64,000 bases of DNA from an uncultured virus (IMG/VR IMGVR_UViG_3300031992_003405) (taxonomy: Duplodnaviria; Heunggongvirae; Uroviricota; Caudoviricetes), in IMG/VR virus record IMGVR_UViG_3300031992_003405, one strand, 5' to 3'. This document shows, piece by piece, positions 29,019 through 64,000 of this stretch (the stretch's first letter is position 1; the number at the start of each line of letters is the position of its first letter). Under the pieces are notes generated by a model. The model was not told the DNA's origin. It saw only the letters and a program-made list of their open reading frames with translations, and searched no databases. The position numbers were made by a program, and so were the translations under genes.

Positions 29019-29228
29019 AAGAGATTAATCACCTCTATATAAATATTAATAAAATAATAATAAAAGAGGAAGAATAAAAAAATAGAGGCTAGGTTTTTAA
29101 ATCTTATTTTTTTGAGTAAAAAAATATATTTTGTTGTTTTGTATATTCATCTAAATTCATTTTATATCACTCCTTTTAATTAATTATATTAAAAAAAATA
29201 ATAAAATAAAAAAGACTAGATATTAAAT

Positions 29229-34530: not shown

Positions 34531-36502
34531 ATTAATAATTTAATTTTTTATTGGAATATTTATAATTTTATAATATATCAATAATAAATATATATTAATA
34601 TAATATATATTTATCTAACGATTAATATCGTATATTTCTATAGAATCATTAATTATATATCTTATATATCTTATATATTAATGATATAATCTATGCTTTA
34701 ATCTATTATTAAAGCTTAATAGGTTTTAAAATATCTAATCCTATTACTAATAGTTATTTAAGCTTTTAATATTATTAAAATTTATAATATTAAAAGGATG
34801 TGAATTATTATTAGTGGTAGAAATCTTAGAAAAAATATCAATAAAAAAGAAAAATTTTATTTAACTGTTAAACAACAAGTCAGTAAATATAAACAATTAT
34901 ATATGTTATTTAAAGAATTATGTAAATATAGTAAAAATTTATATAATTCTGCTTTATATAATATTAGACAATATTTCTTTAATACTGGTAAATATTTAAA
35001 TTATAATGATAATTATCATAATATTAAAAATAATATTAATTATAAATTGTGCGAAGCACAAACTGCTTGTAATATTCTTCATATAGTAGATGAAAGTTTT
35101 CAATCTTTCTTCGCTTTAAAACAAAAAGGATTTAAATGTAATATTCCTAAATATTTAGATAAAAATGATTATTTCATATTACCTACTAATAAAATTCATA
35201 TAAATAAAAATAATGAATGGATTATTCCTTTAAGTTATCAAATATTAAAAGAATATAATTTAACTTTAAAAAGTAAAGATAGATTCAGAATAAAGATATC
35301 TACAATTTTAAAAAATAAAAAGATAAAATATATTCAAGTAATTCCTAAATATAAAGGTAAAATTTTTGAAATTCATTATACCTATGAAATAGAAATTAAT
35401 GATAATATACAAGAAAATAATAATTATTTATCAATAGATTTAGGTATTAAAAATTTAATGACTTGTATTAATTATAATCATAATTATAAAAAGAAAATTA
35501 ATAGTTTTATATTAGATGGTAAAGAATTAAAATCCATAAATCGAGAATATAATAGAATTATTAGTAAATTACAAAAATTAAATACTAATAAAAATTTAAA
35601 ATATACTAAAAGAATGTATAATATCTTAAAAAAGAGAAATAATAGAATTAATTATTATATTCATAAAACATGTAAAAAACTTATAGATTATTCTTTACAA
35701 AATAATATAAAAACTATTATATTAGGATGGAATAGCGATTTTCAAAGAAAATCTAATTTAGGTAGAAAAAATAATCAGTTTTTTACTAGTATACCATTTA
35801 GTAAGATAAAAAATAATTTATCTAAGTTCGCTTGCGAACAAGAGCTTAAGCTCTAAAAAGAATATAGATGCAAAATGAATAATATAAAATTTGTTCTTCA
35901 AGAAGAATCATTTACATCTAAAGCTTCTTTCTTAGATAATGATTATATGTTAAGTTATAAGAAAGATGAAAAGTTAGGTTATGTATTAAGAACAATAGAT
36001 GATAAAGTAGAATCGACGTATGTCGATATAGAGAATTCGACATTAAGAAAGCAACAATTTGCAGGTAAGAGAGTAAAGAGAGGACTTTATAAATCTAAAA
36101 ATGGTATATTAATAAATTCAGATATGAATGGTGCTTTGAATATATTGAAGAAATATTTGTTAAATGAAGAATATGAACGGTTAAATAAAAGTAAATGTAA
36201 GGTTGTAAGTAAAAAGATATCTTATGAAGACTTAATTAATAGTCAAGATATACATAATTTATATGAAGATATATTTACTTTATACTTTAGAGGTGCGCTG
36301 GTAGCACCAATACGAATTAAAGTTCGAGAATCAATATGAAATTAATTATGATATATATAAGAGATAAGTATATATTGAGTTGATTTTAGAATACGCTGTG
36401 AAGTGTAGATTGATTTGATTATATATTAGTATATATATAATAACAAGAGAGCTTAATTGGTATGAATTTTTTAAGATATTGAGATATTTTAAAAATTATC
36501 AG
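34531..36502 (+). mobile_element. TnpB-encoding insertion element (no transposase), parent of the 14227 and 21280 derivatives
   Basis: Ends shared with the 14227 element; terminal TATCAG; carries tnpB. Confidence 0.82.
34807..36339 (+). pseudogene. tnpB: TnpB split by an in-frame TAA at 35854-35856
   Basis: FYLTVKQQV N-terminus (probable ATT start after AAGGATG), SIDLGIKNL, QEESFTSKAS, GKRVKRGLY, INSDMNGALNI; both halves are in the same frame. Confidence 0.85.
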
Positions 36503-37543
36503 GATTATCCTGTAGCTAGTGCATATGCTATTAAATTTGCTAGATCATTGTATTTTGATTTTAAAAAATTATTGCAGGATAAAGAACTTATTAAAAAATT
36601 ATATGCTTGTAATTCTGATTATTGGGAAATTCAAAAAATTCTAACGCCATATATACAAAGAATTATTAATACTAAATTACCTAATTTAACAAAAATAGAA
36701 TATAAAGTATTAATAGAATATATGTTACAATTATATCAACCGCTTATAAAAGCAAATATTCGAAAAAATATTAATAATGTTCTAGAATCCGATGAAAAAG
36801 AAATATTTAGTATAATTGATAAATATATCGCTAAAAATATTTATCAATTATTTTCATCAGCTAATTTATTAAAAGATGAAAGTAATTCTTATTTACAAAG
36901 TTGGATTACTCCTACTGGAGAATTAGAAGAAGGATTCGAATTAAATATATTAAAATCAATATTAAAAGATAATAAAAAACAAATTCAAAAATTAATTGGT
37001 AATGATATAGATTATAAAGATATTACTAGTACTTATTTACTATTATATAGTGATAAATGGACTAGAAAAATTTACAATTTAATATCAGCTAAAAATTTAA
37101 AATTAAAAACTCAACGTGGTAAAAATCTTTTAGAATTGCATGATCAAATAGGTGAAGAAACCAGTATTGATTATGATATTACAGCAGATCATATTCGTAA
37201 TAGACCGCTTATTATAGTTCATGATGATAATACTAATAAAGATTGTGTAATGTTTGGTCCGCGCGGAGTATCTCACGGATTTTATATTAGTAGTGATAAA
37301 TTATTTGCGGATGCAGCAAAACAAAATATTAAAATTGATGAATATAAAATGGGTTATGGATATTTATTAGGAAAAATAGCTTTTGTAGATGAAAAGGCTG
37401 ACGAAAATCAATATGGCTATAGTAATGAAGAAATAGTAAATATATTGAAAAATGATCCACGGATAGAAAAAGTATATCAAACTGGTGGACATCCACATAA
37501 GCCGGGAGATAAAATTAAACGATTAGCCAAATTAATATTTTAA
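36503..37543 (+). CDS. family E protein, 3' part
   Basis: RNRPLIIV...MFGPRGVSHG...YLLGKI...IEKVY...IKRLAKLI. Confidence 0.7.
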   Translation, partial: DYPVASAYAIKFARSLYFDFKKLLQDKELIKKLYACNSDYWEIQKILTPYIQRIINTKLPNLTKIEYKVLIEYMLQLYQPLIKANIRKNINNVLESDEKEIFSIIDKYIAKNIYQLFSSANLLKDESNSYLQSWITPTGELEEGFELNILKSILKDNKKQIQKLIGNDIDYKDITSTYLLLYSDKWTRKIYNLISAKNLKLKTQRGKNLLELHDQIGEETSIDYDITADHIRNRPLIIVHDDNTNKDCVMFGPRGVSHGFYISSDKLFADAAKQNIKIDEYKMGYGYLLGKIAFVDEKADENQYGYSNEEIVNILKNDPRIEKVYQTGGHPHKPGDKIKRLAKLIF

Positions 37544-37663: not shown

Positions 37664-37957
37664 GTGAAAGTATTAAAAAAATATCTTTCAAAAATGTCTA
37701 ATGAGCGTTATGTAAAATGTCAAATTATTCTTAAATTAATGAAAGACGGTTATAATTATAAGCAAGCAAAACAAATGTTTCATAATACTAATATACTAGA
37801 GATAATGCAAGATAATGGACTATATTTCTTTCATCAATCATTATATGATTGGACCAAATGGATAGAAAAACAGCATAAAGATCAATATAAGAAAAATACT
37901 TGTTTTCAAATATTTTTAAATAAAGTAAATGGTATATTAAAAACAAAATTAATCTAA
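37664..37957 (+). CDS. hypothetical protein upstream of the RT
   Basis: SD GGGAG with GTG start; 97 aa; not recognisably Avd. Confidence 0.6.
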   Translation: MKVLKKYLSKMSNERYVKCQIILKLMKDGYNYKQAKQMFHNTNILEIMQDNGLYFFHQSLYDWTKWIEKQHKDQYKKNTCFQIFLNKVNGILKTKLI

Positions 37958-37981
37958 AATAAATATAAAAGGTGAATAATA

Positions 37982-39037
37982 ATTACTTTTCAAGAATTAT
38001 TTTCATATGATAATTTATATAAATCAGCCAAATTATGTTTTAATCATAAACGTGAGAAGCTTTCAATATTATTTATAGAAGCTAATTTACCGTTATATAT
38101 TAAACAATTGCAAAATGAATTGTTTAATAATCAATATTCATGTGATAAATTTATTCATTTTAGAAAATTTAATGGTAATAAATACAGAAATATTGATGCT
38201 TTATATATTAAGGATGCAATCATACATAAATGCTTATGTCGATTTTTAATTATACCTAGATTAATGAATTCATTAATTTACGATAATTGTGCCAGTCAAA
38301 AATATAAAGGTTTACATTTTGCATTTAATAGGTTAAAGAAATTTTTACATGATCATTATTGTAAATACAAAATGCAAGGTGCATATTTACTATTTGATAT
38401 TAAATATTTTTTTGAAACTATTGATCATAAAAAATTAAAAAAATTTTTAATGCCAAAAATAAAAGATAAACAGATATATAATTTATTATGCCATTGTATA
38501 GATGCTAATCAACAAATATATAAACGAACCGCGGTGGGAAATAATAAATATCAAGGTTTAGGATTAGGTACAGAATTATCACAATTATTAGCTTTAATAT
38601 ATACTTCTCCGCTAGATCATTATATTAAGGAAAAATTAAAAATAAAACATTATATACGTTATGTAGATGATAGTATTATTATACATCATGATATAGATTA
38701 TTTATATGAAATATATGAAAAAATAAATATATATTTACAAACACAATTAAATCTAAATTTAAATCAATATAAAACCAGAATTATAAAATTTGTAGATAAT
38801 AATACAATATTATTTTTAAAAACAAAATTTATATTAAGTAATCAACAAATGCATTTTAATTTTAAAAATATAAAGAAAAAAATAAAAATATGGGAAAAAT
38901 TATGGAAGCGTGGAAAAATGAATAAAGAAGATATATTAATATCATATCAATCTTGGAAATCGTATGTAATGCATGGTAATGATAATGAAAAAATACAATA
39001 TATAGATAATTTATTTAATTCAATTTTTATAGAATGA
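37982..39037 (+). CDS. reverse transcriptase, DGR-type
   Basis: The frame extends upstream of the called TTG to an ATA/ATT start after AAGGTG (ITFQELFSYDNLYKSAK). Motifs: GNKYRNI, IYDNCASQKYKG, FDIKYFFETIDH, GLGLGTELSQ (DGR-type GxxxSQ), YIRYVDD, LNQYKT, FLK. No maturase or endonuclease domain. Confidence 0.88.
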   Translation: MTFQELFSYDNLYKSAKLCFNHKREKLSILFIEANLPLYIKQLQNELFNNQYSCDKFIHFRKFNGNKYRNIDALYIKDAIIHKCLCRFLIIPRLMNSLIYDNCASQKYKGLHFAFNRLKKFLHDHYCKYKMQGAYLLFDIKYFFETIDHKKLKKFLMPKIKDKQIYNLLCHCIDANQQIYKRTAVGNNKYQGLGLGTELSQLLALIYTSPLDHYIKEKLKIKHYIRYVDDSIIIHHDIDYLYEIYEKINIYLQTQLNLNLNQYKTRIIKFVDNNTILFLKTKFILSNQQMHFNFKNIKKKIKIWEKLWKRGKMNKEDILISYQSWKSYVMHGNDNEKIQYIDNLFNSIFIE

Positions 39038-39121: not shown

Positions 39122-39964
39122 ATGATTGAAAATAATATATATAACAAATTTGAAATTTTAAGATCACATATATTAATAAGTTCTTGAATTGTAGGAATTT
39201 TATTTTGTACTTTACCTATACAAGAAAACAAGAATATTAAAGATATCGAAATAAAAAATTTTATTTGTTATTTTAATCCACAATATATAGAAAATGAAAA
39301 TTTTGAAGAATTAATAATTAATATTGGAGTTAAAACTATTCAATTCTTTTTTGAATGCGATGATTATGAAGCTATTAATTGTTTTATTATATATTCGTTT
39401 ATGAAAAATTATATGTGGTTTCATAGAGAAAAATTTCAAAGAACACGTAATGAAAATTTTAATATATTAATGAAAAATTTACCATATATAGATATGAAAA
39501 AAAGTACAATAATTTATTGTGCTAATATAGTTCAGCCGTATTATAAATATGATCATAATTTTAATAATACAATTTCCAATATATCATATGATATTAATTT
39601 AATTAATCAATTTAATAGTATTAATATTAATACTAATATTAATTCATTAATTGAACGTTGTAAATTTTTATTTCATATTCAATATTTTTCTTCATTAATT
39701 GATATAAGTACATTTTTTAAAAAATATATTTATAATTTTCAACATTTTTTATTATTTTTATTTATATTGCGTTATAGTTTTCAGCAATCAGCTTTAATTA
39801 ATTTCATGAGATATCATAAACCTGCATTTGATATTTTAAATATCATACTAAATATTAATATAAAAATTGATTCATTTAAGAATGAAGAATTAAATAAAAA
39901 AATTACCAAATTTTTCTCTAATTTTTCATTAGAAGAGAAAGATTGGTATTTATACAATAAATAA
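39122..39964 (+). pseudogene. paralog of 32708 with one in-frame TGA (39185-39187)
   Basis: SD AGGAGG plus ATG 39122; aligns to 32708 across the stop. Confidence 0.75.
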
Positions 39965-43774: not shown

Positions 43775-44018
43775 TAATAGATCTAAATATTCAACAATTA
43801 TGATGTAAATACAACCAATATCTTAATAAGTTTAATTAATAATAATTAAAAAAAGGAATAATTACTTTGCTAAAAGTATAATTATTCCTTTTTTAATTTA
43901 AAAAATTTTATATATTAATTTTTACTAAAAATTAATATTCTTAATAGTTCCATAAGCTAAAATATTTTCTAGATACTATTTTAACATAAAACTTAATTAA
44001 AATAATCTATATTTATAA

Positions 44019-44889: not shown

Positions 44890-47800
44890 TAGAATAAAAC
44901 CGACAGACACACTCGCTGCGGTCGAAGAAGAATATTGTCCGCGATAAAAATCTTCCTTAGGTTGCCAATAATACCATGTTCCCCAACCTAACTCATATTC
45001 GGCCGAACCAATACGAGTAATACTCGGAATCCTTTTTATAAAAACTATATATTAATAAATTATGTTTATTAAACCGGAAGGATATAATCCATTAGCACAA
45101 TCAGGATCTTTAAAACCAACGCCAAAGTTAGCAAGCCATTTCTTAAGTATACACCATTTATATTCAGTCGAGTACATACCCGGAAATTTTTTACATAATA
45201 CAACAATTAAATAAAATTATTTATTTTTTTAAAAGTTTTTATTGTAAATTAATAAATATAAATCGAGAGTTATTTGTCAGGCTTTACGATAGCCATCACA
45301 TCCATCAAAATCACCATAGTTGCTACAAGCGTAAAATATATATAAATTACTTCCGCCATAATTTTCATACTTAGCATGCGGAGAAATTTATATATGATTT
45401 TGAATAAAGTCGAAGGGATTACTTGCACCAGGATATTCAGGAGCTGCTCCATAACGATACACGCAATAATCAGGAATCCGTGCATCAATGATTGACATAA
45501 CGAAGTGTTCATCATAACCCGCATACGATGATCTTTTAATTAAATATATTTTTAAAATTTAGAAAATATAATTAAATTTTTTAATAAAATTATGGGCATA
45601 CTTAGCAATATTAGAGCTTTCAAAAGAATAAAATTTAGACTGACTTTGTTGCCCAGGTGGATAGGAAAGTTTAAAACAATTTGTCAGTGTATAAATCGGC
45701 TGTGGAGATTTTTATATTAATTATATATAAAATTTAATAAAAAATTAAAGCAAACTACTATATAAAATTGATATATATATTTAGAATAAAATCGCGATTA
45801 TCAAAACTATTAATTGCTTGTCGGCCATATTTATCAACTGTCCACTCCATATCAGAGCTCGTAGCAGATAAAGTTGTCAGAAATAAATTCGGACGTGTTG
45901 TACCAGTCGTCTTAACATACAGAGATCTTTTCTATTAATAAATATTTATATTTATAACGATATAACTAAATTTAATAAATAAAAAACTTATTTAAAAGTA
46001 TCATTATAAAATTTATTTAAAAACTTGAAATAAAACCGCTGAATTTATCTGTGATGTATAATAATCAGATGATTCTATGTGATACTCACGATCGTGATAA
46101 CCATCTCCTAATGTACAATACGTTCTTTGTGATAGGTCTTCGAACTTTACTAGAGATTTTTTCTATTAATATATACTTATATTTATATAATTAGATTTAA
46201 TAAATAAATTGTATTTAATTACATTTAAAAAATAAAAAACTTATTTATTAAAGTATTATTATAAAATTTATTTAAAAATTTAGAATGAAACCGTAAGAAT
46301 AGCGATTCCAGGCATATTCAGGACTCGGAGCACCGCATCTATTCCAATTTCCATCTTGATTATTCCAAATATGCCTGCCGAAGCCCAATATCGATATTAG
46401 TCGACCAAATTGATCAGGATTAGCGGCTTGCGGAGATCTTCTCCACTAATAAATTAAATTAAATGTAATAAGATTAAATATATAAAATTGAAGTAAACTT
46501 CTATACAAGATTAAATATACAAGATTGGAACAAAACCGTAAGATGTCGAACAATAATACCAGGCGATAGCGCCCATTTCACCGTCTGATAGACCAGGACC
46601 AAGTACCAACAGCATTAATTGACTATCTTTCGGATCTCCATGCACCAAACATCTTTCCAGTTAATAAACTAAATATATTTAAATATAATAAAATTATATT
46701 CTAATAAAATTTAAAATAAAATCGTCAGAAGCTGATGCATATTGCCAAAACCATGAGCTATGCCCTCCATAGTAAACGTTGCTTGTATACGGCCATTGAT
46801 CAGCTTCTATAAAACTTATATCATAATTACACCTTTTGTGCAGAGATCTTTCCTGCCAATAAATTAAATATAACTAAAAGTAATAAAATCAAATTCTGAA
46901 AAAATTTAAATATATAAGATTAAAATAAAAACCGTTACTCTGTATAATATCGGCATGTACAGGGATCCCAATCGCGGGTGCCCAATCTGCCGTAGAACTA
47001 GATACTCTTAAACCTGATTCGGCAGGCTGTGTTACGTCATGGTTGGACCACACATTCGGAGATCTTTTCCATTATAAAATTTGAAGCATAACCGTAACTA
47101 AATATAATATAGTCTTTATATGCATATGTAGAACCTGGAATTACTGAATTACCTTGTATAGTTATTAAATTCCAAAATGGAGTCCAATCAACACTACCGA
47201 ATCTCGGAGATCTTTCCTATCAATGAACTAAATATAATAAAATTGAATTCTAATGAAATTAAGTATATAAGATTAAAGTAAACTTCTATATAAAATTAAA
47301 ATATGCAAAATTGAAGTATATAAAATAGAAGTATACAAGATTGGAACAAAACTGTAATTCCGCTTGCCATAATTAACTGGCTGCATATCATTTGTCCAAT
47401 CAGATGTGCCGTGCAAAAAACTGGCTAGCCAGTTTCCATGAGCGTTGTGATCTTGAGATCTTTCCCGCCAATAAATTAAATATATTTAAATGTAATAATA
47501 AAATTCAATTATATAAGATTGAAGTATATAAAATTGAAATAAACTGTTATATAAAATTTAAATATATAAGATTAAAGTAAAACCGAAATTAGCATAAGTT
47601 CATTGATTTTCAGCTAACCAGTTTTTATAAGCATTATCTAAACATACCGTACAATTATATATATTATGATTACTAGATGATTTAGACGGAAAGTTTTTTA
47701 CTAATGAACTAGATATATTAAAATGTAATAATAAAAATGAATTTTACAAAATTTAAGTATGCAAGATTGAAGTAAACTTCTATATAAAATTGAAATAAAA

Positions 47801-50800
47801 TCGTTATCACGATAGGAATACAAACTTCCATATTTCCAAGGCTCTATTATACTAGTTATATATATAAACCAATGTCTATAATTATTGTAAATACCATTAA
47901 TTGGATCATGCATGACCGGAGATCTTTTTCATTAATAGATTGAGTGGATTTAAATATAATGATATAATTTAATTGTACAAAATTTAAATATACAAGACTA
48001 AAATATATAAAATTAAATATACAAAATTGGAATAAACTTCTATATAAGATTGGAATAAAACCGAATACGTGATAAGGCTGTCCGGCAGTATGAACAGTTA
48101 AATCTCCACTGTTATATGGATATTGACGACCTAAATTAGATATACTTTGAAAATGTATTCCCCAAACAGTACCCGGAAATCTTTCTTATCAATGAATTAA
48201 ATATAATTAAATGCAATAGAATTTGGAACAAAACCAAAAAATACCATTATTCTCACGGGCATTATGGTTGCCAGTCCAAGGATGTAAGCTGTAGACTTCC
48301 AGCCTACAAGGTATTCGTACATTCGCATCTGTGTACACATTTGAAGATTTTTCTTACTAATGCTAATATATATTAATATAAAATTAAAAATTTTAATACA
48401 ATATAAATATATAAGATTTAAATATATAAGATTAAAATATACAAGATTATAACAAAACCGAGACTAGTGAAAATAGGATAATATTCAGGATATGTTGTCT
48501 GAGTCCAAACATAATTCGTCTTACTAGTACCATCATATATATTCTGAAAAGTAAATATTGTACCATACCAGTCTTCATATTTCGTACGTAGAGATTTTTC
48601 TTACAAAATGTTAATATATATTAAGATAAAATTAAAAAATTTTAATATAATTTAAATATACAAAATTTAAGTATACAAGATTGAAGTAGACTTCTATATA
48701 AAATTGGAACAAAACTGGTAGAAGTAAAGCAAGACGTAGCACCAGGATCTTCATAACCGTATCCCATAGCAGAACCCCATCGCTTTAAAAAGCACCAGTC
48801 AGTATATATGTCTAATCCCTGATCCCATAGTTTAGGTACTAACGGAAATTGTTTCATTAATAAATTAAATATAACTAAATGCAATAAAATTAAATTCTAC
48901 AAAATTTTAATATATAAGATTAAAGTATACAAGATTAGAATAAACTCCTATATAAAATTTAAATATACAAGATTAGAACAAAACCGTGTACAGTTGCCGC
49001 GTATTCAAAATCAGTCCATCCTTCAACAGTGCCTTCATCGCGATTCGCGGGTATAAAATGATAATACCATTTCGAGGTCGACACCCAATACGGCTTTAAC
49101 GGAGATCTTTCTCATTAATAAATTAAATATATTTGAATGTAATAAAATTGAAATATACAAGATTAAAGTATACAAAATTGGAACAAAACCGAAAGATAAC
49201 GATACTAGGTAATGCGCGTACGCATATCCTGCCGACACTTCACTATTATACGCATCGGTACCATATACTTTGCAAAACTGTATGGTATAGCCAACGTTCT
49301 TAACTGTCATCAGAGATTTTTCTTACCAATAAACTAAATATATTTAAATATAATAAAATTAAGTTTTAATAAAATTTAAATATACAAGATTAAAGTATAT
49401 AAAATTGAAACAAAGCCGCAATACAATGCATCTGTTGCATAACATGTGGCGCCATGAAAGTTGTAAGAATAATCCATATTGAATGATGCAACAATACACC
49501 AGGTACAATGATTGTTCGTTGCATGTGGATTATAATTTTGAACCGGAGATCTTTCCCACCAATGAACTAGATATATTTAAATATAATAATAAAATTTAAT
49601 TCTAAAAAATTTAAGTATATAAGAACGAAATATATAAGATTGAAATAAATTGCTATATAAAATTTGGAACAAAACCGAATGAATAATAAGAATAATCAGA
49701 ACACGAACGAGTGAATAATTTAAGATGAAACATCATATATTCAGATGTGTGACCGCCTTCTTTGCTCGGAGATCTTTCCTACCAATAAATTAAATATAAC
49801 TAAAGGTAATAAAATTAAATTTTAATAAAATTTAAATATATAAAATTTAAATATACAAGATGAAAGTAAATTTTTATATAAATTTGGAACAAAACCGAGA
49901 TTATAACGACCTAATTGCACAGGATAAGTATACGAAAACTCAGCATAATATACCATATAGTGGCCGTCATTCCATTCCGGATCCCAGACTTGATTCAATA
50001 TCCACCCGTCTCGTCCTTCTACCACCCCTTCGCCATGCTGGCTCACGCTCGGAGATCTTTCTCACCAATAAACTAGATATAACTGAATACAATAAAATTT
50101 AAATATATAAAATTGAAGCAAGCTTCTAATAAAATTTGGAACAAAACTGTTATCCCAATATACATAATTAGAGCAAGTCTCATTGCCAACGCGAAAATCG
50201 TACGGTACTAAATAGCATACCGTACTATGATCGCCTTGGTGGCTTGGAGATTTTTCTTGCCAATGAATTAAATACAATTAAATGTAATAAAATTGAATTC
50301 TATAAAATTTAAATATACAAGATTGAAACAAACTTTTATATAAAATTGGAACAAAACCGCTATTACAATCAGTTTGTGTTGCTTGCGTCAAACGATCAGC
50401 ATAATCAGTTGTGTTAAACAAATGCCCATCATCTGGCACACTCATAAAATTATATACATCGCCTTGATACCAATGCTCATACTGTGTATACGGAAATTTT
50501 TCTTACCAATGAATTAAATATAATAAAATTGAATTCTAATAAAATTTAGAACAAAACCGTTAGATTGTTTCACATCCCACGAGTTTTCTGGAAACCAAAT
50601 ATGATTAATACTGTTTGTGCCTAACGACTCGATGCACAGAAATTGCGTTGCCTTTGCTGTATGCGGAGATTTTTCTCATCAATAAATTAAATATAACTAA
50701 ATGTAATAAATTGAATTCTAATAAAATTTAAATGTATAAGATTAAAGTATATAAAATTGAAGTAAACTTCTATATAAAATCGAAACAAAACTGATTGTAA

Positions 50801-53800
50801 TACTTACTGGATATCTATCAGATTCTACCAATATGTTTTTGTTTAAAATTGGGTATGGACCAAATTGCCCAATCATACATGCATCTTGCCCTTCGCCAAC
50901 AGCCGGAAATCTTTTCCATTAATAAATTGAGTAAATTTAAATATAATAATAATACAATTTAATTATATAAAATTTAAATATATAAAATTAAAGTAAACCT
51001 CTATATAAAATTAAATATACAAGATTGGAACAAAACCGATATTATCAATGGGATAGCTAGTATGACCGACAACGTCGCTAACATTACCATTCGATATATC
51101 CCTCCAATGAAAATATCCAACCGAGAGAAACCATACTTCAGCAGTAGATTTATTCGGAGATCTTTTCCATTAATAAACTAAATATATTTAAATATAATAA
51201 AATTCAATTTTAAAAAATTTAAATATATAAAATGGAAATATATAAAATTGAAGTAAACTTCTAATAAAATTTGGAACAAAACCGAGTTTCGTAAGGACAC
51301 ACCCGCCACCCGAAAGTATCGCTTCCTCAAATGTACTTAGGTCAACCATACAAGTGACATTATACACGTGCACACCATTTCCAACATACACCTTAACTTG
51401 AGCTGGAGATTTTTCCCATCAATGAAATATAACTAAATACAATAAAATTGAATTTAGAAAATTTAAATATACAAGATAAAAGTATATAAAATGGAAGTAT
51501 ACAAGATTGAAGTAAACTTCTATATAAAATTAAATATACTAGATCGGAACAAAACCGTAAGAATGAGTGCATCCTTTAACTTGCCCTGGATGAAAAGCTT
51601 GGTGCCAGGCATTGCCAGTGTCTCCTATCTCAATATAATAATGTTCAATATAGTTTTGGTACCAATTATATACCGGAGATTTTTTCCATTAATGAACTAG
51701 ATATATTTAAATGTAATAATAAAATTAAATTCTAATGAAATTTAAATATACAAAATTAAAGTATGCAAGATTAAAGTGAACTTCTATACAAGATTGAAAC
51801 AAAACCATCTGTGTCATAACACAGTATAGAAGAGGCATAATCAAAACGAGGAGATGCATTATTATGTTGATGTCCTACATTAGTAACTACGTTTTCCGTA
51901 AACCGACGAGACGCATCTGCACCCGGAGATCTTTTCTACTAATAAATTGAATATATTTAAATATAATGATAAAATTTTAATAAAATATAAATATACAAAA
52001 TTTAAGTATATAAAATTGACATATACAAGATTGAAGTAAACTTCTATGCAAGATTAAATATACGAGATTAGAACAAAGCCGATAGATTTACGAGGTACTG
52101 TATAAGTCCAGCCATTCGTACCATATTCAGATAGTTTATGTTCTAAATCATATGTCATAGGCCAACAGTCACTAATATATCCTCCCCAAACAGGTTCATA
52201 ATAATTAAGTTGATGATTCTTATACGGAGATCTTTATATAAAGAATTCTTTGTAAAAGTATTGATATAAAAAATTATTGATATAAAAAATTATTGATATA
52301 AAAAATTATTCAGATTAATATAAAATCGAGTGAAAAGACAGCAGGATCAAGCATCCTGTTGAACCAGTTATCATCTAAGCCATAGCTGGCGTATAAATAA
52401 CATTTATCTTTTTCCGCATATGCACTTGCTCGATTCGGAGATTTTTATAAAAAAAACTAAACCCGAAAGAATATTGACATTCTTTCGCACTCGATACTGA
52501 CCAAACGCCGTCTTTTCCTAGCATTAAATTACATTGTGGATCCCAAGATGCATTTGCATGGGACGGATATCTTTCCCATCAATAAATTAGATATATTTAA
52601 AATTGAGCATTAAATTTCTTTGGAACAAAACCGGCATTACCAAAAGCTCCATGATTCCATGAATGTCTGTTATCACAGGCATAAGTTGCAGACGATGTTA
52701 TTCCCTCAAATGCCGTCCGATTAACATCTGTATAATACCAGCCGAGAACTGGAGATTTTTTCTGTTAATAAATTAAGTATAACTAAATACAATAAAATTA
52801 AATTCTAATAGAATTTAAATATACAAGATTAAAGTACACTTCTATATAAAATTAAATATATAAGATTAGAGTAAACTTCTATATAAGATTGAAATAAAAC
52901 TGTGAGATTCACTTGCAATAGTGAAATCGGGATCAAGAAAATAACTACCTTTAACATACTGATATTTTTTCAAGAATCCAAATACATATAATTTATCATA
53001 TGCTGATGTTTCTATTATTGCTGGATATCTTTCCTATCAATAAATTAAATATAACCAAATGTAATAAAATTTAAATATACAAAATTAAAGTATATAAAAT
53101 TGAAATAAAGCAACATCCTTTATTTTTCCATAATTGAGTTCGCATGTTGTCCACTGAATCTCCTCTGTCATCTACGCTGCAAAACTCAGTTAACACAATC
53201 TGCTGTCCTAGATTATTGCGTTTGCTGTGTGAAAATCTTTCTCATTAATAAATTAAATATATTTAAATATAATAATAAAATTTAATTATACAAAATTAAA
53301 GTATACAAGATTGGAATAAAATCGACGGAAAGATTAACATAATGGCTCACAGCATCGTATATGTCACGTGCAGAATCTAAACAATTCAAAAAACTGACGT
53401 CTGAATGTCCAACATGCTGTAATTTACTCGAAGATCTTTTTCACCAATAAACTAGGTATAACTAAATAACAATAAAATTCAATTATATAAGATTGAAGTA
53501 TATAAGATTAAAATAAACTGTTATACAAAATTTAAATATACAATATTGGAGTAAAACCGAGAGTCATCGCCTCCTTGTGCACACCAAAAGCAAAATCAAT
53601 ACAATTGCGTCCATCTGTAACTATCCAGTCAAATATTACCAGTGCGGCTTCCCCATTCTTATACGGAGATCTTTCCCGCTAATAAATTGAATATAACTAA
53701 ATATAATAGAATTTTATTAAAATTTAAATATACAAAATTTAAGTATATAAGATTGGAGTAAGCTCCTATACAAGATTAAATATACGAGATTGGAACAAAA

Positions 53801-56800
53801 CCGTAAACTTTGTCAGTACACAACAGGGATCTAAACTGACTACCGCGCTCAGAGATCACACAGTATGTATTCTTACCATCGTAAGTTTCGTCAACCGTGG
53901 CAAGGAGGCCCGGAAATCTTTCACACCAATAAATTAAATATAACTAAATGTAATAAAATTGAATTCTAATAAAGTTAAAGTATGCAATATTGGAACAAAA
54001 CCATAATGAACATACGCCCAGTTATAACTAGTAAATCTTCAGTCAAACGCAAAAACAAATGGAACAAAACCGTCATTATATGTTACATCTTCCCAAATAG
54101 ATTCCGTATCGTAATCATAACTACTCTCATATTGCCAGTCAACACCGGCATCTCCAACCACTGTCCATGTATACCTTCTGTGTGTTAACCAATACTCAGT
54201 ACCTGAAGATATTTCTCGCTAATAAATTAAATATAATTAAATGCAATAATAAAATTAAGTATTAAGTTTCTTTAGAATAAAACTAACTTCCATAGCAAAC
54301 TCAACACCAATGTATGCATTACTGTGTGCTTCCGTATCACTAAACAAAACACCAGTCTAAGGCGCAGTTGTGTCATTTTTAGTCGAAATATGTACTAGAG
54401 ATCTTTCTTATCAATAAATTAGATATATTTAAATGTAATAATAAAATTTAATTCTAAAAAATTTAAATATACAAAATTAAAGTATACAAGATTGAAATAA
54501 ATTTCTATATAAGATTAGAATAAAATTGTTGAAATCACTTGTAAAGGCATATCCAGGTATGCCAGGAATAGAAACATTAGCCGAAGGATCTTGTACGATA
54601 CAAAAAATATTATTTCTATATCGTGAAAATTTATCTATCTTTAACAGAAATCGTTATCGCTAATAAATATTTATATTTATAAAGATACAATTAAATTTAA
54701 TAAATAAATTATATTTAATGATTTTTAATATATTTAAAAAACAAAAAATTTATTTAAGAATTTGGAACAAAACCGACAGTCTCTGCACTAGCTTTGTAGA
54801 ACCAGCCATCGTGTCCATAATCTCCAATATTAGTATATACACAGGTAAATTGTTCGCTAAGTCTCAATCCATTTAAAGGCTCTAAGTAACCTATATTCCA
54901 GTTCCTATATAGAGATTTTTTCTCATAATGAACAAAATGCAATAAAATTGAATTATAATAAAATTTAAGTATACAATATTGGAACAAAACCGACAGAACC
55001 GGCTGCAACATAATTCTCAGATTGTATAGGAAATAAAGAAGGAAATGTGTTTCTCGTTCCTAGAAAAGTAAAACAAATTGTTGCATACTCATAGTTAATT
55101 GTCAGAAATCTTTTCTACCAATAAATATTTATAAAGATATAATTAGATTTAATAAATAAATTATATTTAATCATTTTTAATAATATTTATTATTTTACAA
55201 AATTTGGAACAAAACCGAGAGAATGATGACACCACGAACATGCACGATTACCGAAACGATCACTAGCGAATGATATTAATTCAAATCTATTTGCTGTCTC
55301 TAGACTCGGAGATCTTTCCCATTAATAAATGAAATATATTTAAATACAATAAAATTGAATTCTAATAAAATTTAAATATACAAAATTAAATATACAAGAT
55401 TGACGTATACAAGATTGGAACAAAACTGTGATTATGATAAGTCCAAGCATTACCACAACTACCGAGCGGGTTACCATCACCCCCACCGCATACGTAAATA
55501 TACCTCTCTTTGGCCCAGCCGCTGGTTGCAGATTTTCCCGGAAATCTTTCTTATTAATAGATTGAGTAGATTTAAATATAATGATACAAAATTAAAATAT
55601 ACAAGATTAAAATATACAAGATCGGAACAAAACCGAAACTAGCAGACATTGCCATTATTGATGACACTCGATCTGCATTGAACATGATTCCCTCAAAGTC
55701 GACATTATAGCTCATCTTATATCCTAAATTCGCATTGTACATCGACTGGCTCTTGCTCGGAGATTTTTCCTACCAATGAATTAAAATATATTTAAATGTA
55801 ATGATAAAATTGAGTGCTAAGTTTTTTTAGAATAAAATCGTGAGAATAAGACGCCTCATAAGAATCCCAGGGAGAATCTTCTGCATCAGCAGCAGCCTTG
55901 CCTCTACGTCCTAGGCAAATACCTTGAGTACGTTTCTCTACTTCCAGAGATCTTTCCCACCAATGAATTAGATATATTTTAATATAATAATAAAATTTAA
56001 TTATATAAGATTAAAGTATACACGATTGAAGTAAACTTCTAATAGAATTTAAATATACAAAATTGAAATAGAACCGTCACTAAAATAAAAATGCTCAGTA
56101 CTCGCAGTAGTATCATAATCATATGACGGATCGTATGTCCATCTCGGACCAGCATCGCCCACACTAGTACATTGGTCTATAGTCCGTGCATTTAGAGATC
56201 TTTCTTGTCAATAAATTAGATATATTTAAATACAATAAAATTAAATTTTAATAAAATTTAAATATACAAGATTGGAACAACAAAACCACTACTGCAATGG
56301 GGATGAAAACTTCCATATTCCCAAGATTCTGTCATACTAGTTATATAGATAAAAAAATGCTTAAAATTATTATAAATACCATTAATTGGATCACGTATAA
56401 CCAGAAATCTTTTCTATTAAAAGATTAAGTGACTTTAAATATAATGATACAAAATTTAAATATACAAGATTGAAGTAAACTTCTAATAAAATTTGGAAAA
56501 AAATGGTATTATCATCATTATCACAATGGCCTGAGTTGCCTGACCAAGGAGGTAAACCAATAACTTGCAGCCTTTTAGGTAGTCGTACATTCACATTAAC
56601 GTATGGGCTTGGAGATCTTTTTGACTAATATTAATATAAAATTAAAAAGTTTTAATAAAATATAAATATATAAAATTTAAGTATACAAGATTGAAATAAA
56701 TTACTATATAAAATTAAATATACAAAATTTGGAACAAAACCGCAACAATAATGTGCCCTCACACACCCAGGTAAACAAAATGGATATTCAAAGGAAGGTG

Positions 56801-59800
56801 CTTGTCGCGTCATTACACACCAGTCTTCATAACTGCTGTAGCCCTGATCATATCTTATTGGAACACGCGGAGATCTTTCCCACCAATGAACTAGATATAT
56901 TTAAATATAATATAATGAAATTAAATTCTAAAAAAATTTAAATATACAAAATTGAAGTAAACTCCTATATAAAATATAAATATATAAAATTGGAACAAAA
57001 CCGACATCTCTCCATACATCACACAAATGTCCCCATGTATCTTTTGGCCATTTCGTGCTACCATAATCCAAGATACCATCTTCTAACACAAACATAATTG
57101 TAGTGTCGTACTTAGGAGTCGGAGATCTTTCCCACTAATGAACTAAATATAATTAAATAACAATAAAATTGAATTATATAAGATTAAATATATAAAATTT
57201 AAGTATACAAAATTGTGAACAAAATTGAGACTAATATATGCATAATTCATGTGCGAAGCGACGGGAAATTTAGAAGGCCATACGCCAACTTCTCCTAGCA
57301 TTAAAAACGTAATATCTCCCGAGCTAAATGTAGGGCATGGAGATCTTTTTCATTAATAAACTAAATATATTTAAACATAATAATAGAATTCAATTCTAAA
57401 AAAAATTGAAACAAAATCGAAAGAAAAAATTGCGAAATCACCACAACTTGACTCAGCGAAAACCTCATACCTGTGCGCCTCACACAAATAATTTTTATAC
57501 TGATCACCGCTATTAACTCCCCGATTTCCATCATATCTTGTCGGAAATCTTTTTTTACCAATAAATTAGATATATTAAAATGTAATAATAAAATTCAATT
57601 CTAATATAATCGAAATATACAAAATTAGAATATATAGAATTGAAGTAAATTTCTATATAAGATTAAGTATACGAGATTGAAGTAAACTTCTAATAAAATT
57701 TGGAACAAAACCGAGACTATGCAATTTATGATCTATGTGATAGATCCACTTGACTTCGCCAGAAAATTCTTGATTACCAGTCAAGCCAAATTGTCCAATG
57801 TTAGAATCAGAGTGCGTGTGATTCGGAGATCTTTCCTAATAATGAACTAAATATAACTAAAGATAATAAAATTAAATTTTATTAAAATTTAAATATACAA
57901 GATTTAAGTATATAAGATAGGAACAAAACCATGGACCATCGAACACCAGTTCCCTCCTTCCATAAAATTTACCTGAAAATCGACATAGCTCGCATTCGGA
58001 GGTATTGAATACCCGGAAAGCTTATACGAAAATCTTTCCTACTAATAAATTAAATATAACTAAATGTAATAAAATTTGGAATAAAACTGTGAATTTTATG
58101 ACAACGCCAGTTACTATGTTCGTCTCCAGGAAAGCGGTTCTCAATATACGTACCAACGACGTATAAATACTGCATCGGAAACGACGCATCTAATTCTCCA
58201 GCTATTAGAAATCTTTTTTATTAATAAATCTAGCATATTTAAATACAATTTTATTATTATATTTAAAATCTTTTTTAGAACAAAAACGATAGCAACAAAA
58301 GTATGTATACAGTCGCGCAGCCCAGGCTTATTGCTTTTACCTTGTGTAATGGCATATTAACCTTCGTAAAGCGAGGAGATTTGCAAAAATTTTTCCTACT
58401 AATATTAATATATATTAAGATAAAATTAACAAATATTTAATAAAATATAAATATACAAAATTTGGAATAAAACCGCTTGGCCTATCAGCATACAATGAGC
58501 TTGCGTTAGTCCAACCGCCGTACTCCCACGGGTGCAAAAAACATGGTTTATTATGTGACTGACTCTCTTTACTCGGAGATCTTTCTCATCAATGAACTAA
58601 ATATAACTAAAGATAATAAAATTTAAATATATAAAATTTGGAACAAAACCATAAACATCGATGGTATCAATTGCAGTCGCAAAATAACGCCCTGTAGTAC
58701 CACGATTACTTGAGTAAGTAAAACGCTTATAAGGTTGCATATCTAAAGAGTCATTTGCGACATCTGGATATACGCCCAGAGATCTTTCCTTCATCAATAA
58801 ATTAAATATAACTAAATATAACGAAATACAATGAAATTGAATTTTAAAAATTTAAATATACAATATTGAAATAAACTTCTATACAAGATTAAATATACTA
58901 GATTGCAATATGCAAGATTGGAACAAAACCGCTTTTCCAACCCGCAGGGCCATACGGATAACTACAATACAGGTTCACGGCAACGTCAATCTTTCCATCG
59001 TTCCTCGTCGCACCTACAACGAAATCAAAACCTATGTCACTCGCCCCGAATTCAGCGACCCAAGCCTTCGTCGGCGATTTTTTTCATCAATGAATTAAAT
59101 ATATTTAAATGAATTTTAATAAAATTTAGACTATAACCCTCAACACAAGATGCATAAATGTTAATAGCCCTAGCGAAATCGTTGTAAGAACTGTATCCTA
59201 CTTCGCAAAATCTTAGACTTGTATCAGCTTTAGATACGTCGACTAATGTTTTCGGAGATCTTTTTTTACCAATAAAATATAATTAAATACAATAAAATTC
59301 AATTTTAAAAATTTAAATATACAAGATTGAAATAAAACCGTGACATTGATAGCATGCGCCCCCAACGCTAATTCCACGCTCATAATTCGAACTTAAGCCT
59401 CCACCACCGTAATAATACACAAGCAACCACCACATATCTTGCCCGGAACTACCAAGTTCCGGAGAGCTTTTTCACCAATAAACTAGATATAACTAAAGAT
59501 AATAAAATTTAGAATAAAACTGAGAATATGACTACATACCTTATACTGTCCGGGACGATAATCTCCTTCCCACGCATTGCCACTATTTGCGATTGGGATA
59601 TACATGGTGCCTCGAATATTGTCACCATAATTACAGTCCGGAAATTTTTTACATCAATAAAATATAATTAAATACAATAAAATTAAATTTTAAAAAATTT
59701 TAATATACAAAATTAGAACAAAATCGACGCCATTATCGGTCCAATTACTCACGGCGTCGAAGATGTCACATGCTGAATCTTAACATATAAGACCACTGAC

Positions 59801-62800
59801 TTCATAATGGGTAACGTGTTGTAATTTACTCGGAAATCTTTTCCTATTAATATGAATATATATTAATATAAAATTAAAAAATTTTAATAAAATATAAATA
59901 TACAAAATTAAAGTAAACTTCTATATAAAATTAGAATAAAACCGATATTATTCCACGCATTATCAGCATTATCAACCCAGTTTAATAACGATACATTAGG
60001 AAAATTTGGCGCTGCATTAAACACCCGACTTCTCACTACAGTACTATTACCAGACCATTGATTCGAAGATCTTTCTCATCAATAAATTAAATATAATTAA
60101 ATTGAATTCTACAAAATTTAAGTATACAAGATTAAAGTAAACTTTTATATAAATTGTAAGTATACAAGATTATAACAAAACTGTGAATATTATTTACATA
60201 ATAACAATCAGGCAAATAATAGTAGTTCTTTAAAGGCGTTTTTATTCCATACTTTTCTAACATACAAAAAGCATATTCCCAACTACCTACATTTAGAGAT
60301 ATTTCCCGTCAATAAATTAGATATATTATGTAATAATTAAATTAAATTCTAATAGAATTTAAATATATAAGATTACAGTATGCAAGATTAAAGTAAATTT
60401 CTAATAAAATTTGGAACAAAACCGTTAACACGCTGAATTCCCTCGTAATTAGTGTTTGTCCACCCATACCCATAGGCATGGCCGTACCATGTCAGTAAGC
60501 AAAATCCCCAACTGGGGGAAGGGTGATTCGGAGATCTTTCCTGCTAATATATATTAAGATAAAATTAAAAAATTTTAATAAAATATAAATATACAAAATT
60601 TAAAGTATACAAGATTAAAATATATAAGATTGAAGTAAACGTAAACTTCTAATAAAATTTGGAACAAAACCGATGTATACATTCGCGTAATAAGAGCCAC
60701 GCAGACCTGGCTCATTGGTCTTCCCTTGTGGCCCGCAATATTGCCCGACATAGAGTCCGTTTTCCCTCGGAGATCTTTACCACCAATAAATTAAATATAT
60801 TAAAATGTAATAATAAAATTCAATTCTAAAAATTTAAATATACAAGATTAAAATAAAACCGTGAATATAAATTGCCCTGTGATGTTGACTGGTTACCGGG
60901 AAGGTAGAAGGAAAATGGTTTGCTTCACCTAGAACACAATAGCGATTGTATTCTGCGAGCTCGTATCTTGCCGGAGATCTTTCCCACTAATAAATTAGAT
61001 GTATTTAAATACAATAAAATTTAATTTTACAAAATTTAAATATACAAAATTGAAGTATACAAGATTAAAGTAAGCTCCTATATAAAATTAAATATATAAG
61101 ATTGGAACGAACTCGGCGTTATGTGATGGGATGGTAGTCCATCAATCACTATATATGCCGAATCCTTGATTAAATTCTACCGGCACGCACGAAAATCTTT
61201 CCTACCAATAAATCTAGTATATTTAAATACAATGATAAAATTTTATTTTACAAAGTTTGGAATAAAACAGACATCTTCATCTGCATATATACGATAGGAC
61301 ATACACCTGCCATCTACACATAAAGTACCATAATCCCAAGCATCGATCTCTGGCGCATAACTAGATTCATAATATTTTTGTGTTGGAGATCTTTCCCACC
61401 AATGAACTAAATATAATAAAAATAAATTATGATAAAATTAAAGTATACAAGATTAAAGTATATAAAATTAAAACAAAATCAAGACTATCAATACCGTTTT
61501 CTCCATATCCACTTCTTGGGCCATCGCTTGCATACCAAATAGATGTGAAATTACTTAGACCATAATTACCATAACTATCTTTATACTTTACCAGAGATCT
61601 TTTCTGCTAATAAATTAAATATATTTAAATACAATAATAAAATTGAATTTAAATATATTTAAATATATAAGATTAAAGTATATAAAATGAAAGTATACAA
61701 GATTGAAATAAACTTCTATATAAAATTAGAACAAAACCAAGATCACAAAAGCTGTCTTCACTATGATCGCCTGCCACACCAGATTTATGTGTCATGATAG
61801 TAGACATTTGTGCATAATATCCCTTGCCTGGATATGACCCACTCACTTTAGTCGGAGATCTTTTCTATTAATAAATTAAATATAATTAAATACAATAAAA
61901 ATTGAATTTTAGCAAAATTTAAGTATACAAGATTGAAGTAAAACTTTTATATAAAATTAAATATACAAGATTGGAATAAAACCGCGAGTTGTAGTGTGTT
62001 GATCGTGAAGATGATCATCAATCGATAGGTTCGATGTACCTACACTATGTAGCTCTGCGCCCCACACTTGCAGATGGCAATAATGACTCATTGACGAATT
62101 GTTAGCCGGAGATCTTTCCCACTAATATTAATATATATTAAGATAAAATTAAAAAATTTTAATAAAATATAAATATACAAGATTGGAATAAACTTCTATA
62201 TAAAATTAGAACAAAACCGTAAGATAGAAATACTCGGTAATTCGCGTACGCGTATCCTGCCGACACTTCACTATTATACGCATCAGTACCATATACTTTA
62301 CAAAACTGTATGGTATAGTTAGCGTTCCGAACTGTCATCGGAGATTTTTCCCACTAATGGACGGAGTATAACTAAATGTAATAAAATTCAATTCTAATAG
62401 AATTTAAATATACAAGATTAAAACGAGCTTCTAATAAAATTTGGAACAAAACCGTTACTAGCCCACACAAAACTAGTCTTGGCAATAACATCGCTAACAC
62501 TGCCGTACGATACCAGCTGGTAATTAAAGTATCCCACAGATGTAAAACATGGGTTGTTATCCTGAACCCACGGATTGAGTGACGGAGATCTTTCTCACCA
62601 ATAAGCTAAATATAACTAAAGATAATAAAATTAAATTATACAAAATTTGGAACAAAACCGGCACAAAGGACGTCCATCGTATATGACGGTTTCTCAAAGC
62701 CAAGTCCAAGGACGTCACCCCTACGATGTAACCAGCACCAGTTACCGTACTTCTGCAACCCCTCGTCCCAAGTCACTGGCACATGCGGAGATCTTTCCTA

Positions 62801-64000
62801 CCAATAAACTGAGTATAACTAAATACAATAAAATTGAATTTTAACAAAATTTAAATATACAAGATAAAAGTATATAAAATGAAAATATACAAGATTGAAG
62901 TAAATTTCTATATAAAATTAAATATACAAAATCAAAGTATACAAGATTGGAACAAAACCGTAACTACTATTTACTACAGCATTACCACTACTGCCGAGCG
63001 GATTATTGTCACTACCATCGCTTACGTATTCATCTCTCTCTAAGGGCCATCCTACGTATGCATTATATTTACCCGGAAATCTTTCTTATTAATAGATTGA
63101 ATAGATTTAAATATAATAATACAAAATTAAAATATACAAAATTGAACCAAAGCCGTATGAATCTGTAGTTCTCCAGATGCCGTTGTCCGTGAGATCAATA
63201 TCATAATTTTGTATGCCAATAAATTCAATCTAAGTCTTGTATCCCAATGCCGGGCGAATTAGTGCCATTCGGGCCCTTATGCAGAGATCTTTCCCACTTA
63301 TAAACTAAATATATTTAAATGTAATAATAAAATTTAATTCTATAAAATTTATAACAAAACTGAAGCTATTGTATGAAAACTGTATCTCATTTTCATATCG
63401 ACTAAAACCTTGCCTGCCAGTATCAGAAGTAACGGATGCATATCCGTTAATTTCGCATCGCTCACACCCAGCGAAAAGTAACCTGAATCTGTCTTCGACG
63501 GAGATATTTCCTACTAATAAAATATAACTAGCTAAATACAATAAAATTAAATTTTACAAAATTTAAATATATAAAATTAGAGTATATAAAATTGAAGCAA
63601 ACTTTTATACAAGATTAGAGTAAACTTCTATATAAAATATAAATATACAAAATTTGGATATATAAAATTGGAACAAAACCGTTAGATGTAAAATTGTATT
63701 TCCAGTTACCTAAATTGTCTATACCATGACTAATAAGAGCACCACCGTTTCCCGCAATCATTATCACCACCCACTGCTCATCATGGTTGTTTTGTACTAC
63801 AGTCAAAGATCTTTTCCACTAATGTTAATATAGAATTAAAAAATTCTAATAAAATTTAAATATATAAAATTAAATATACAAGATCGGAACAAAACTGCCA
63901 GACTTATGTACGTTCCATTCATTACTCGTATAGACACCATGTAAGTCGGAAATGCGCAACCCGCCATCATCAAGGAGTCTATCCAGAGATTTTTTTCACC
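44890..64000 (-). repeat. array of about 87 DGR-variable-region-like cassettes (WWERSP-variable-GFVP) with AT-rich spacers; continues past the window end
   Basis: Plus strand unit: TTGGAACAAAACCG, then about 90-160 nt of unique, GC-richer sequence, then CGGAGATCTTTCCCACCAATAAA, then an AT-rich spacer. Minus-strand translation runs in frame from RSP to GFVP in the units translated by hand (e.g. 49190, 51550, 56995, 58465, 62650). Confidence 0.92.

Follow-up and report, generated by a model that had tools for sequence, protein, structure and literature searches.

The window described here is a stretch of 64,000 nucleotides from an uncultured virus (IMG/VR IMGVR_UViG_3300031992_003405). Two of its features concern us: a gene for a reverse transcriptase (RT) of the type found in diversity-generating retroelements (DGRs), and a long array of short in-frame cassettes that resemble the variable ends of DGR target genes (Table 1). 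The GC content of the window is 15-31% per kb, and its genes are densely packed and provided with Shine-Dalgarno sites. Sheep gut metagenome runs contain the same DNA, and the window is tentatively read as belonging to a phage, a plasmid or a comparable replicon whose host is an AT-rich gut bacterium. When 36 open reading frames (ORFs) were scanned against PHROGs, the RT was the sole match.

Table 1. Positions of the RT gene, the cassette array and adjoining features in the 64,000-nt window
Feature	Position	Strand	Basis or remark
DGR-lineage RT, 351 aa, ATT start, TGA stop	37982..39037	+	motifs, profiles, structure match, tree
RT start region: Shine-Dalgarno AGGTGA, then ATA ATA ATT	37968..37984	+	Met of relatives at the ATT position
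ORF97: small basic protein, predicted all-helical, in the place of avd, not recognisably Avd	37664..37957	+	directly upstream of the RT
Gene in the canonical target-gene position, not DUF6273	36380..37543	+	no Pfam or PDB match
Array of ~82 silent in-frame cassettes of variable-region type, cut by the window end	44890..64000	-	flank profiles, frame tests
Proximal units, more degenerate, short spacers	44890..45800	-	flanks decayed to K-R-I-P, K-K-F-P and similar
Example cassette, 116 nt	57004..57119	-	5' flank 57120-57137 encodes (W)WERSP; 3' flank 56990-57003, CGGTTTTGTTCCAA, encodes GFVP

The RT frame begins at 37976, directly after a stop at 37973-37975, stays open as far as the TGA at 39035-39037 and contains no ATG, GTG or TTG before 38108. 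The ATT at 37982 is the real start, since it lies 6 nt after AGGTGA and aligns with the initiator Met of the close relatives P0008 and P0009. Identity to these and the other close relatives is 90% (P0008), 87% (P0009), 90% (P0010), 71% (P0011), 54% (P0012) and 51% (P0013). The YVDD and LGTELSQ motifs are intact, with G, S, Q, Y, D and D invariant in 9/9 aligned sequences; the catalytic motifs are invariant in relatives down to 37% identity, and all catalytic residues are kept across the window's own clade (51-90% identity). A preliminary description of this DNA had spoken of a compact RT of about 350 aa with these two motifs and a non-canonical ATA/ATT start, some 6 kb from the array. Each of these points holds, the distance from 39037 to about 44890 being 5.85 kb.

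The RT motif that defines DGRs is [I/L/V]GxxxSQ. The window RT matches phrog_1423 over its full length (E 3e-74), and its best match of solved structure is 8ub7 (E 4.9e-11, residues 8-268), in which the SQ motif aligns with LGTELSQ. The title of that entry says only 'Reverse transcriptase'; we take it to be the DGR enzyme bRT of a Bordetella phage. Structures of retron-type and group II RTs match at E 1.8e-5. Among models of other classes, those of NCBIfam for group II RTs (75 bits where 300 are required) and for Drt3a (54.6 against 200) fall far short of their cut-offs, the PADLOC defence-RT models give E 2e-18 (UG17) and 1.3e-14 (Drt3a), and just one of 47 plasmid records matching the RT at E<=5 is annotated as a group II RT. 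Pfam returned no match to the RT at E<=0.01, probably an effect of composition, and relatives carry PF00078. In a rooted tree of 32 rows, which held group II but no retron or UG RTs, the window RT groups with its six close relatives in a clade (support 100/100) on a long stem (1.09). This clade lies inside a group (98/99) with six RTs whose loci have validated pairs of template repeat (TR) and variable repeat (VR). The RT of a Legionella plasmid DGR, whose locus is ordered DUF1566 gene, four-helix-bundle gene, RT, branches further out, and the group II RT stands outside all of these. Membership of the group II, retron or UG/DRT classes is not indicated, the phrog_1423 match being far above those models and the group II RT an outgroup. 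Judged by clade, by the alignment with 8ub7 and by the S and Q residues invariant in 9/9 sequences, the RT is a member of the DGR lineage; the DGR type named in the preliminary description is thus supported by phylogeny as well as by profile and structure.

TR/VR pairs were sought with a detector for repeat pairs of 50-400 nt that carry five or more mismatches and in which 80% of these fall on A (or on T) in one of the two copies. Applied to related loci of at least 4 kb, it found an adenine-biased pair in 45 of 54. The layout of these relatives is target gene, small gene, template and RT, the template lying 150-500 nt upstream of the RT. Positions 1-45800 of the window yielded no pair, and over the whole window 5 of 4332 repeat pairs passed, all of them located in AT-rich spacers, with 5-10 mismatches, and representing spacer noise. 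No TR and VR differing almost only at template adenines were found within the 64 kb. Nor does a template lie beside the RT, where the gap from ORF97 is 19 nt and the 84 AT-rich nucleotides after the gene contain no repeat; over the 38 kb before it and the 25 kb after it, this copy of the RT lacks a template.

The DGR accessory protein Avd is a basic four-helix bundle. ORF97 carries 18 K+R against 7 D+E, and its fold model, although all-helical, is unreliable (pLDDT 54). It gave no match to Pfam bAvd (PF22296) and an hhalign probability of 0.1% against the profile of the relatives' small gene. That Avd-like profile matched none of the 1546 window ORFs (best E 0.29). The relatives' small gene is itself weakly bAvd-like, with 3 of 12 matching PF22296 at E 1.8e-6 to 1e-3, all below the Pfam cut-off. 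The earlier observation that neither a template repeat nor a recognisable avd accompanies the RT is therefore confirmed, including by direct comparison of 37664..37957 with Avd. Six homologs of ORF97 share 82-100% identity with it. One of them and the RT homolog P0010 are probably on the same contig and the pair conserved, because these two homologs share the same longest contig size of 5321 nt. Upstream, ORF 36722-37543 is a C-terminal paralog of ORF 30949-32622 (E 7e-8), and the module that follows the RT is a paralog of the module after ORF 30949-32622. Since flanking gene and module both have paralogs, ORF97 and the RT look like a two-gene insertion into a duplicated gene set.

Profiles of the two flanks gave 82 and 103 minus-strand matches in the array, and both boundaries could be paired for 66 units. 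Read on the plus strand, a unit consists of an AT-rich module, GGAACAAAACCG, the variable segment and CGGAGATCTTTCC. With one mismatch allowed the two motifs occur 40 and 39 times, respectively, in the array only and in a single orientation, where about 0.05 would be expected by chance. The cassettes are 72-152 nt long with a median of 113 nt (24-51 codons, median 38 aa), and 61 of 66 lengths share one phase. Under translation table 11, one minus-strand frame is open in 63 of the 66; each of the other five frames is open in 1-15, and shuffled cassettes give 4.8 on average (12 at most). At both edges the information content drops from near maximal to zero within one base, and the strongly conserved flanks measure about 18-23 nt (5') and 14 nt (3'). 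The cassettes have a GC content of about 40% in a replicon of 18% GC, and their four-fold sites 34% compared with 14% for ordinary genes. An interpretation as spliced exons was rejected: GT..AG boundaries would rotate the frame, and the cassettes share one. The modules between cassettes are 63-183 nt long. Each (e.g., 46447-46538) holds two to six 15-nt tandem repeats resembling AAATATACAAGATTG, and about 25 of them have a small hairpin, GAAGT..ACTTC on the cassette-sense strand, roughly 30-45 nt after the cassette, which recalls the hairpin after the variable repeats of several relatives.

The cassettes are rarely related to one another, with only 11 related pairs found by BLASTP. The 461 mismatches in these pairs are spread evenly over codon positions (135/155/171) and involve A and T on 251 sides each, which amounts to no adenine bias, and cassette lengths vary by in-frame indels. 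An apparent loss of adenine at third positions (A 0.42 to 0.23, T unchanged) was considered as a DGR footprint and rejected, since the effect disappears when four-fold sites alone are considered, where A falls from 0.40 to 0.30 and T from 0.46 to 0.37; synonymous sites in the cassettes reflect a general GC enrichment and no loss specific to adenine. Inspection of variant boundaries by eye gave no consistent compensatory changes between the two flanks. Flank decay shows no significant polarity along the array, and cassette GC varies with array position (rho 0.25, p 0.04). Promoter-like sites in the 49-53 kb region number 19, against 28.8 expected, and a Pfam search with 65 cassette peptides returned nothing below E 0.028.

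DUF6273 is described in two papers as a C-type-lectin-like domain of gut-phage DGR targets with a C-terminal variable region (PMC11792537; PMC10743442). Target proteins of the RT's relatives end in this domain in 7/7 cases scanned. The surroundings of their VRs read WW(T/L)RSP, 34-40 residues, and then GF.I-stop, CFCI-stop or similar. In 24 of 44 validated relatives the pattern [WYF]W.[RA][ST]P falls between -38 and +11 nt from the 5' edge of the VR, on a background of 39 matches in 3.63 million six-frame residues; a 45th validated locus (L098) was left out of the count, its pair being T-biased and at the locus edge. The majority codons of the 5' flank in the array are Y/H, TGG, TGG, GAA, AGA, TCT and CCG, which encode WWERSP, and the variable part begins directly after the Pro, as it does in the relatives. 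The 3' flank encodes G-F-V-P, followed in 15 of 65 units by a stop at codon 9. TR/VR lengths in the relatives (53-129 nt) have the same median of 113 nt as the cassettes. A profile of the relatives' DUF6273 ends, run against the 1546 window ORFs, placed 15 of its 16 matches in array ORFs and mostly in register, although the matches are individually weak (E 0.14-9) and composition may contribute; hydrophobicity profiles of cassettes and relatives' VRs correlate at r = 0.22, which is only suggestive. We conclude that the array units derive from the variable-region end (about the last 45 codons) of a DUF6273 target gene belonging to the window RT's own family. Only these ends occur in the window, in about 82 copies, and the body of DUF6273 is absent. 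Because the array is built from the target-gene end of this very RT family, its coincidence with the RT is unlikely to be accidental. The earlier suggestion that the array replaces the single template gains indirect support from the agreement of the WWERSP and GFVP flanks with DUF6273 VR edges and from the equal medians.

The two Trp codons of the 5' flank are still TGG in 19 and 17 of 65 units and have become TAA, TAG or TGA in 39 and 32. Flank Trp codons thus comprise 36 TGG and 71 stops, as compared with 81 TGG and 5 stops inside the cassettes (Fisher p = 2e-19). Selection thus guards each unit against stops and AT decay between roughly ERSP and GF, but leaves the sequence that precedes ERSP unprotected. 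Because the cassettes are stop-free (63/66) while the neighbouring Trp codons have decayed to stops, they are interpreted as protected silent donors, with the transferred segment predicted to start at the ERSP boundary. In this respect the window contains a silent, in-frame cassette array with conserved flanks like that of vls; an expression site with the same flanks was found neither in the window nor by a protein word search.

The reading preferred here, with a probability of roughly 0.45, is that of a DGR derivative in which finished variable regions, stored as a library, have taken over from the single template; the RT would copy them into a target gene located beyond the window. A more specific form of it, held a little more tentatively, may be called retro-conversion: the DGR-lineage RT would pass any of at least 82 stored, pre-selected cassettes via RNA into the tip of a C-type-lectin receptor-binding gene. 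The array would be transcribed on the minus strand, in the sense of the cassettes, and the RT, perhaps with ORF97 acting as Avd, would reverse-transcribe one unit, for which the AT-rich module behind each cassette could provide an RNA handle. The cDNA would then replace the variable region of an expressed DUF6273 gene outside the window. Two sequences would guide it: the 14-nt 3' flank, standing in for the IMH (the DGR homing signal), and the 5' flank coding for ERSP. Diversity would come mainly from choice among stored, pre-selected variable regions, with adenine mutagenesis possibly added.

A number of results weigh against this library model. The RT is encoded on the strand opposite to the cassettes and 5.85 kb from them, at odds with the close upstream template of its relatives, and ORF97 has no similarity to Avd. 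The ATT start could mean low expression or early decay of the RT. The cassettes are not classic templates, AAY codons making up 7% in them versus 37% in the TRs of 11 relatives; codons prone to become stops (AAA/AAG/AGA) still number 96, although the expected count, 133 +/- 9, is higher. The search for an expression site was negative: outside the array the window has no copy of the flank motifs, no window sequence matches the first 130 positions of the DUF6273 profile, and the protein word search for a longer protein with the flanks, in itself weak evidence, gave none. Such a site may lie beyond position 64000, since ORF97 occurs on a contig of up to 92 kb. In mapped contigs no cDNA, joint or stranded transcript was seen, joints and loose ends being mostly AT-rich noise, and no RNA-library contigs were seen on the RT, which shows nothing by itself. 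The order of units, moreover, derives from short-read assembly and could be wrong, other contigs confirming only stretches of up to 1.2 kb. Finally, arrays are absent from all 139 loci of relatives that measure at least 3 kb; repeat places there number 3 at most, compared with 64 here. The pattern of homologs with a single template and never an array, which the preliminary description regarded as fatal to its proposal, is therefore found among distant homologs (template in 45/54, array in 0/139). It is not decisive, because the close clade, whose members share 51-90% identity with the window RT, is set apart by a long branch (1.09).

The main rival to the library model, less likely in our estimation, retains the silent donors and dispenses with reverse transcription: the cassettes would be used by DNA recombination, either RecA-type gene conversion or a site-specific enzyme, and the RT would serve a TR/VR pair elsewhere or be a relic. 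Silent, in-frame, stop-free cassettes with conserved flanks are a hallmark of such systems, and the character of the cassettes, which are not adenine-rich templates, the remote position of the RT on the other strand, its ATT start and the lack of arrays among distant relatives all suit this explanation. It leaves unaccounted for that no recombinase was recognised among the neighbours, that the conserved flanks (about 18-23 nt and 14 nt) are short for homologous recombination, and that the RT clade keeps all its catalytic residues although this copy has no template in the 38 kb upstream or 25 kb downstream. It is improbable that the RT has another role, such as anti-phage defence, and stands near the array by coincidence in a rearranged region. 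The PADLOC scores, the long stem of the clade and the resemblance of ORF97 and the RT to a two-gene insertion between duplicated gene sets could be cited for it, but the PADLOC scores are weak and the DGR-type matches far stronger, and an array made of this RT family's own target-gene end makes coincidence unlikely.

Two further explanations concern the origin of the array. Marginally less probable still is that it represents dead debris: a gene that was once a DGR target would have had its 3' end duplicated in tandem, and the copies would be decaying next to an RT that is decaying too. Stops in place of flank Trp codons, the degenerate proximal units, stops in 3/66 cassettes and the ATT start of the RT point that way; set against them are the 63/66 stop-free cassettes where 4.8 would be expected, the contrast of TGG and stops between cassettes and flanks (p = 2e-19), the GC content of the cassettes both overall and at four-fold sites, and the intact RT motifs. 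Least probable, and very improbable in itself, is an archive of cDNA products, in which past variable regions from one template were laid down in tandem. The cassettes do resemble finished variable regions and not templates, but products of one template should share their non-adenine positions, and only 11 related pairs exist among the 66 cassettes, whose lengths span 72-152 nt. Every unit, moreover, includes a module of 63-183 nt that is not part of a template. The absence of an adenine footprint bears differently on the two ideas: it argues against archived products of one template, and it does not count against the library model because templates themselves stay unmutated. The possibility raised in the preliminary description that the RT made the cDNAs deposited in the array is thus not upheld, given so few related pairs, their in-frame indels and 461 mismatches without adenine bias.

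Searches for the cassettes elsewhere gave little. Compared with window positions 1-45800, cassette DNA produced short AT-rich matches only (longest 47 nt; best E 7e-6, over 26 nt), and cassette proteins had no match below E 0.019 in the rest of the window and none in 156 relatives' loci. A search with one cassette and its flanks against 1.84 billion representatives returned itself and three tandem-repeat ORFs, judged spurious as sums of weak matches. Exact array 22-mers were absent from viral contigs. A two-part array pattern gave 13 and 3 single matches in unrelated genome records and viral contigs, which are taken as chance, and megablast of the 30-45 kb region against phages and plasmids found no match. 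Contigs of run X3, from another sample and study, match array unit 46009-46498 and RT pieces 37821-38385 with zero differences. RNA-library contigs cover 43065-43779 and the proximal units at 44937-45177, 45311-45461 and 45593-45763, and may be DNA carry-over. In the literature searched, which did not extend to subscription papers and supplements, no DGR is described whose templates or silent cassettes form an array, and the phrases 'multiple TR', 'two TRs' and 'more than one TR' are absent from the survey PMC5758913.

Several neighbouring regions merit description. Over 37001-37527, within the gene in the canonical target position, run X3 contains a second contig with 51 differences over 527 nt; by hand count, most of the 37 variants listed fall at third codon positions of ORF 36380-37543, and they are read as a diverged strain or paralog and not as DGR-type variation. 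Between the RT and the array lie two Cys-rich 168-aa paralogs, 44019-44525 (-) and 41156-41662 (-), whose DNA is 82% alike over 870 nt, and between these the 511-aa protein of 42239-43774, with a weak match to SprT-like zinc proteases and zinc-ribbon-like CxxC pairs; all three are orphans and could belong to the system. Immediately after the RT, the copy at 39122-39964 (+) has an in-frame TGA where its 270-aa paralog 32708-33520 (+) continues, and in this pair the TGA is not aligned with Trp. Code 4 (TGA = Trp) had appeared to extend ORFs and was rejected: in TnpB, Dam, GT9 and the RT, internal Trp is encoded by TGG throughout, and TGA is confined to protein ends. As every internal Trp in conserved proteins is TGG, the standard code applies with TGA as a stop, under which 39122-39964 is truncated to 187 aa or a pseudogene.

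Elsewhere in the window, Pfam names two GT9 glycosyltransferases, a Dam methylase, a GNAT protein, HNH proteins and two TnpB genes, and scans of the window gave no tRNA genes and no Rfam matches. One TnpB (IS605 OrfB) gene, 27729-29018 (-), is whole and has a Cas12f1-like TNB domain; its flanks at 27902-27998 and 28919-29039 are GC-richer and may hold a guide RNA. The second, 34903-36339 (+), which comes just before the RT locus, is split into the ORFs 34903-35856 and 35875-36339. The GC-richest island outside the array (0.42 over 90 nt), at 10959-11120, lies at or just past the start of ORF 10474-10986 (-) and is possibly a structured RNA, for which Rfam gave nothing. AT-rich repeat regions at 11.9-13.0 kb and 16.8-18.5 kb are 66-76% alike in direct and inverted orientation and lack long ORFs. 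At the window start, which cuts it, the RRXRR and HNH endonuclease gene 3-1127 (+) is among the few genes of normal GC content. The early promoter of giant viruses, AAAATTGA, was considered and rejected, since it stands upstream of 1 of 45 ORFs.

To our knowledge, DGRs are the only retroelements that benefit their host by gene rewriting, and we know of no described DGR that does not use one template and draw its diversity from adenine errors. If the library model is correct, the window would hold the first donor-library diversification system run by reverse transcription, joining the RNA-mediated, site-directed rewriting of DGRs to the cassette libraries of antigenic variation. DGR machinery could then evolve from hypermutation to library choice, a parallel to vertebrate immune systems, which use pseudogene conversion alongside somatic hypermutation, and the locus would be a natural means of replacing a defined protein segment in a programmable way from an RNA template. 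Whether or not the RT drives the exchange, an array of some 82 silent cassettes for a receptor tip, carried by a gut phage or plasmid, is unreported in the literature searched. The presence of an RT without its own template so near to these stored versions of a gene tip suggests a new way for such an element to keep varying a binding protein.

The window was compared with several known systems. A CRISPR array consists of identical repeats of 23-47 nt, non-coding spacers of uniform length and cas genes. The window differs on each point, having modules of 63-183 nt with internal 15-nt repeats and variable parts that code in frame, and no Cas family was found. To the Bordetella phage BPP-1 DGR (bRT, Avd, TR and Mtd), in which the variable region lies at the C-terminus of a C-type-lectin fold, the likeness is that of the best structure match, 8ub7, if it is bRT, with the SQ motifs aligned. 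Identity is about 25%, and the window is without Avd, an adjacent TR or an adenine-rich template. Closer are the phage DGRs with DUF6273 targets (Faecalibacterium phages, gut phages nd4 and nd12; PMC11792537; PMC10743442), which share the RT lineage, WWxRSP at the start of the variable part, some 35-40 C-terminal variable residues followed by F..I and a stop, and the repeat length. In these relatives a single TR lies 150-500 nt ahead of the RT, the TR/VR pair is adenine-biased and a bAvd-like gene is present, whereas the window has no such pair, no recognisable Avd and about 82 mostly unrelated cassettes instead of one template. Target genes number at most about eight per DGR, with no arrays of gene ends, in the portion of PMC10743442 consulted. 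In its organisation the array resembles the vlsE/vls locus of Borrelia, which also has contiguous silent in-frame cassettes with conserved flanks and without a promoter or start of their own (PMC11499132). Identity among the vls cassettes, and between them and the expression site, is about 90%, while the cassettes of the window are mostly unalignable, only about 113 nt long and separated by conserved modules of 63-183 nt; the window units, moreover, descend from the variable region of a retroelement, and an RT of the same family is encoded nearby.

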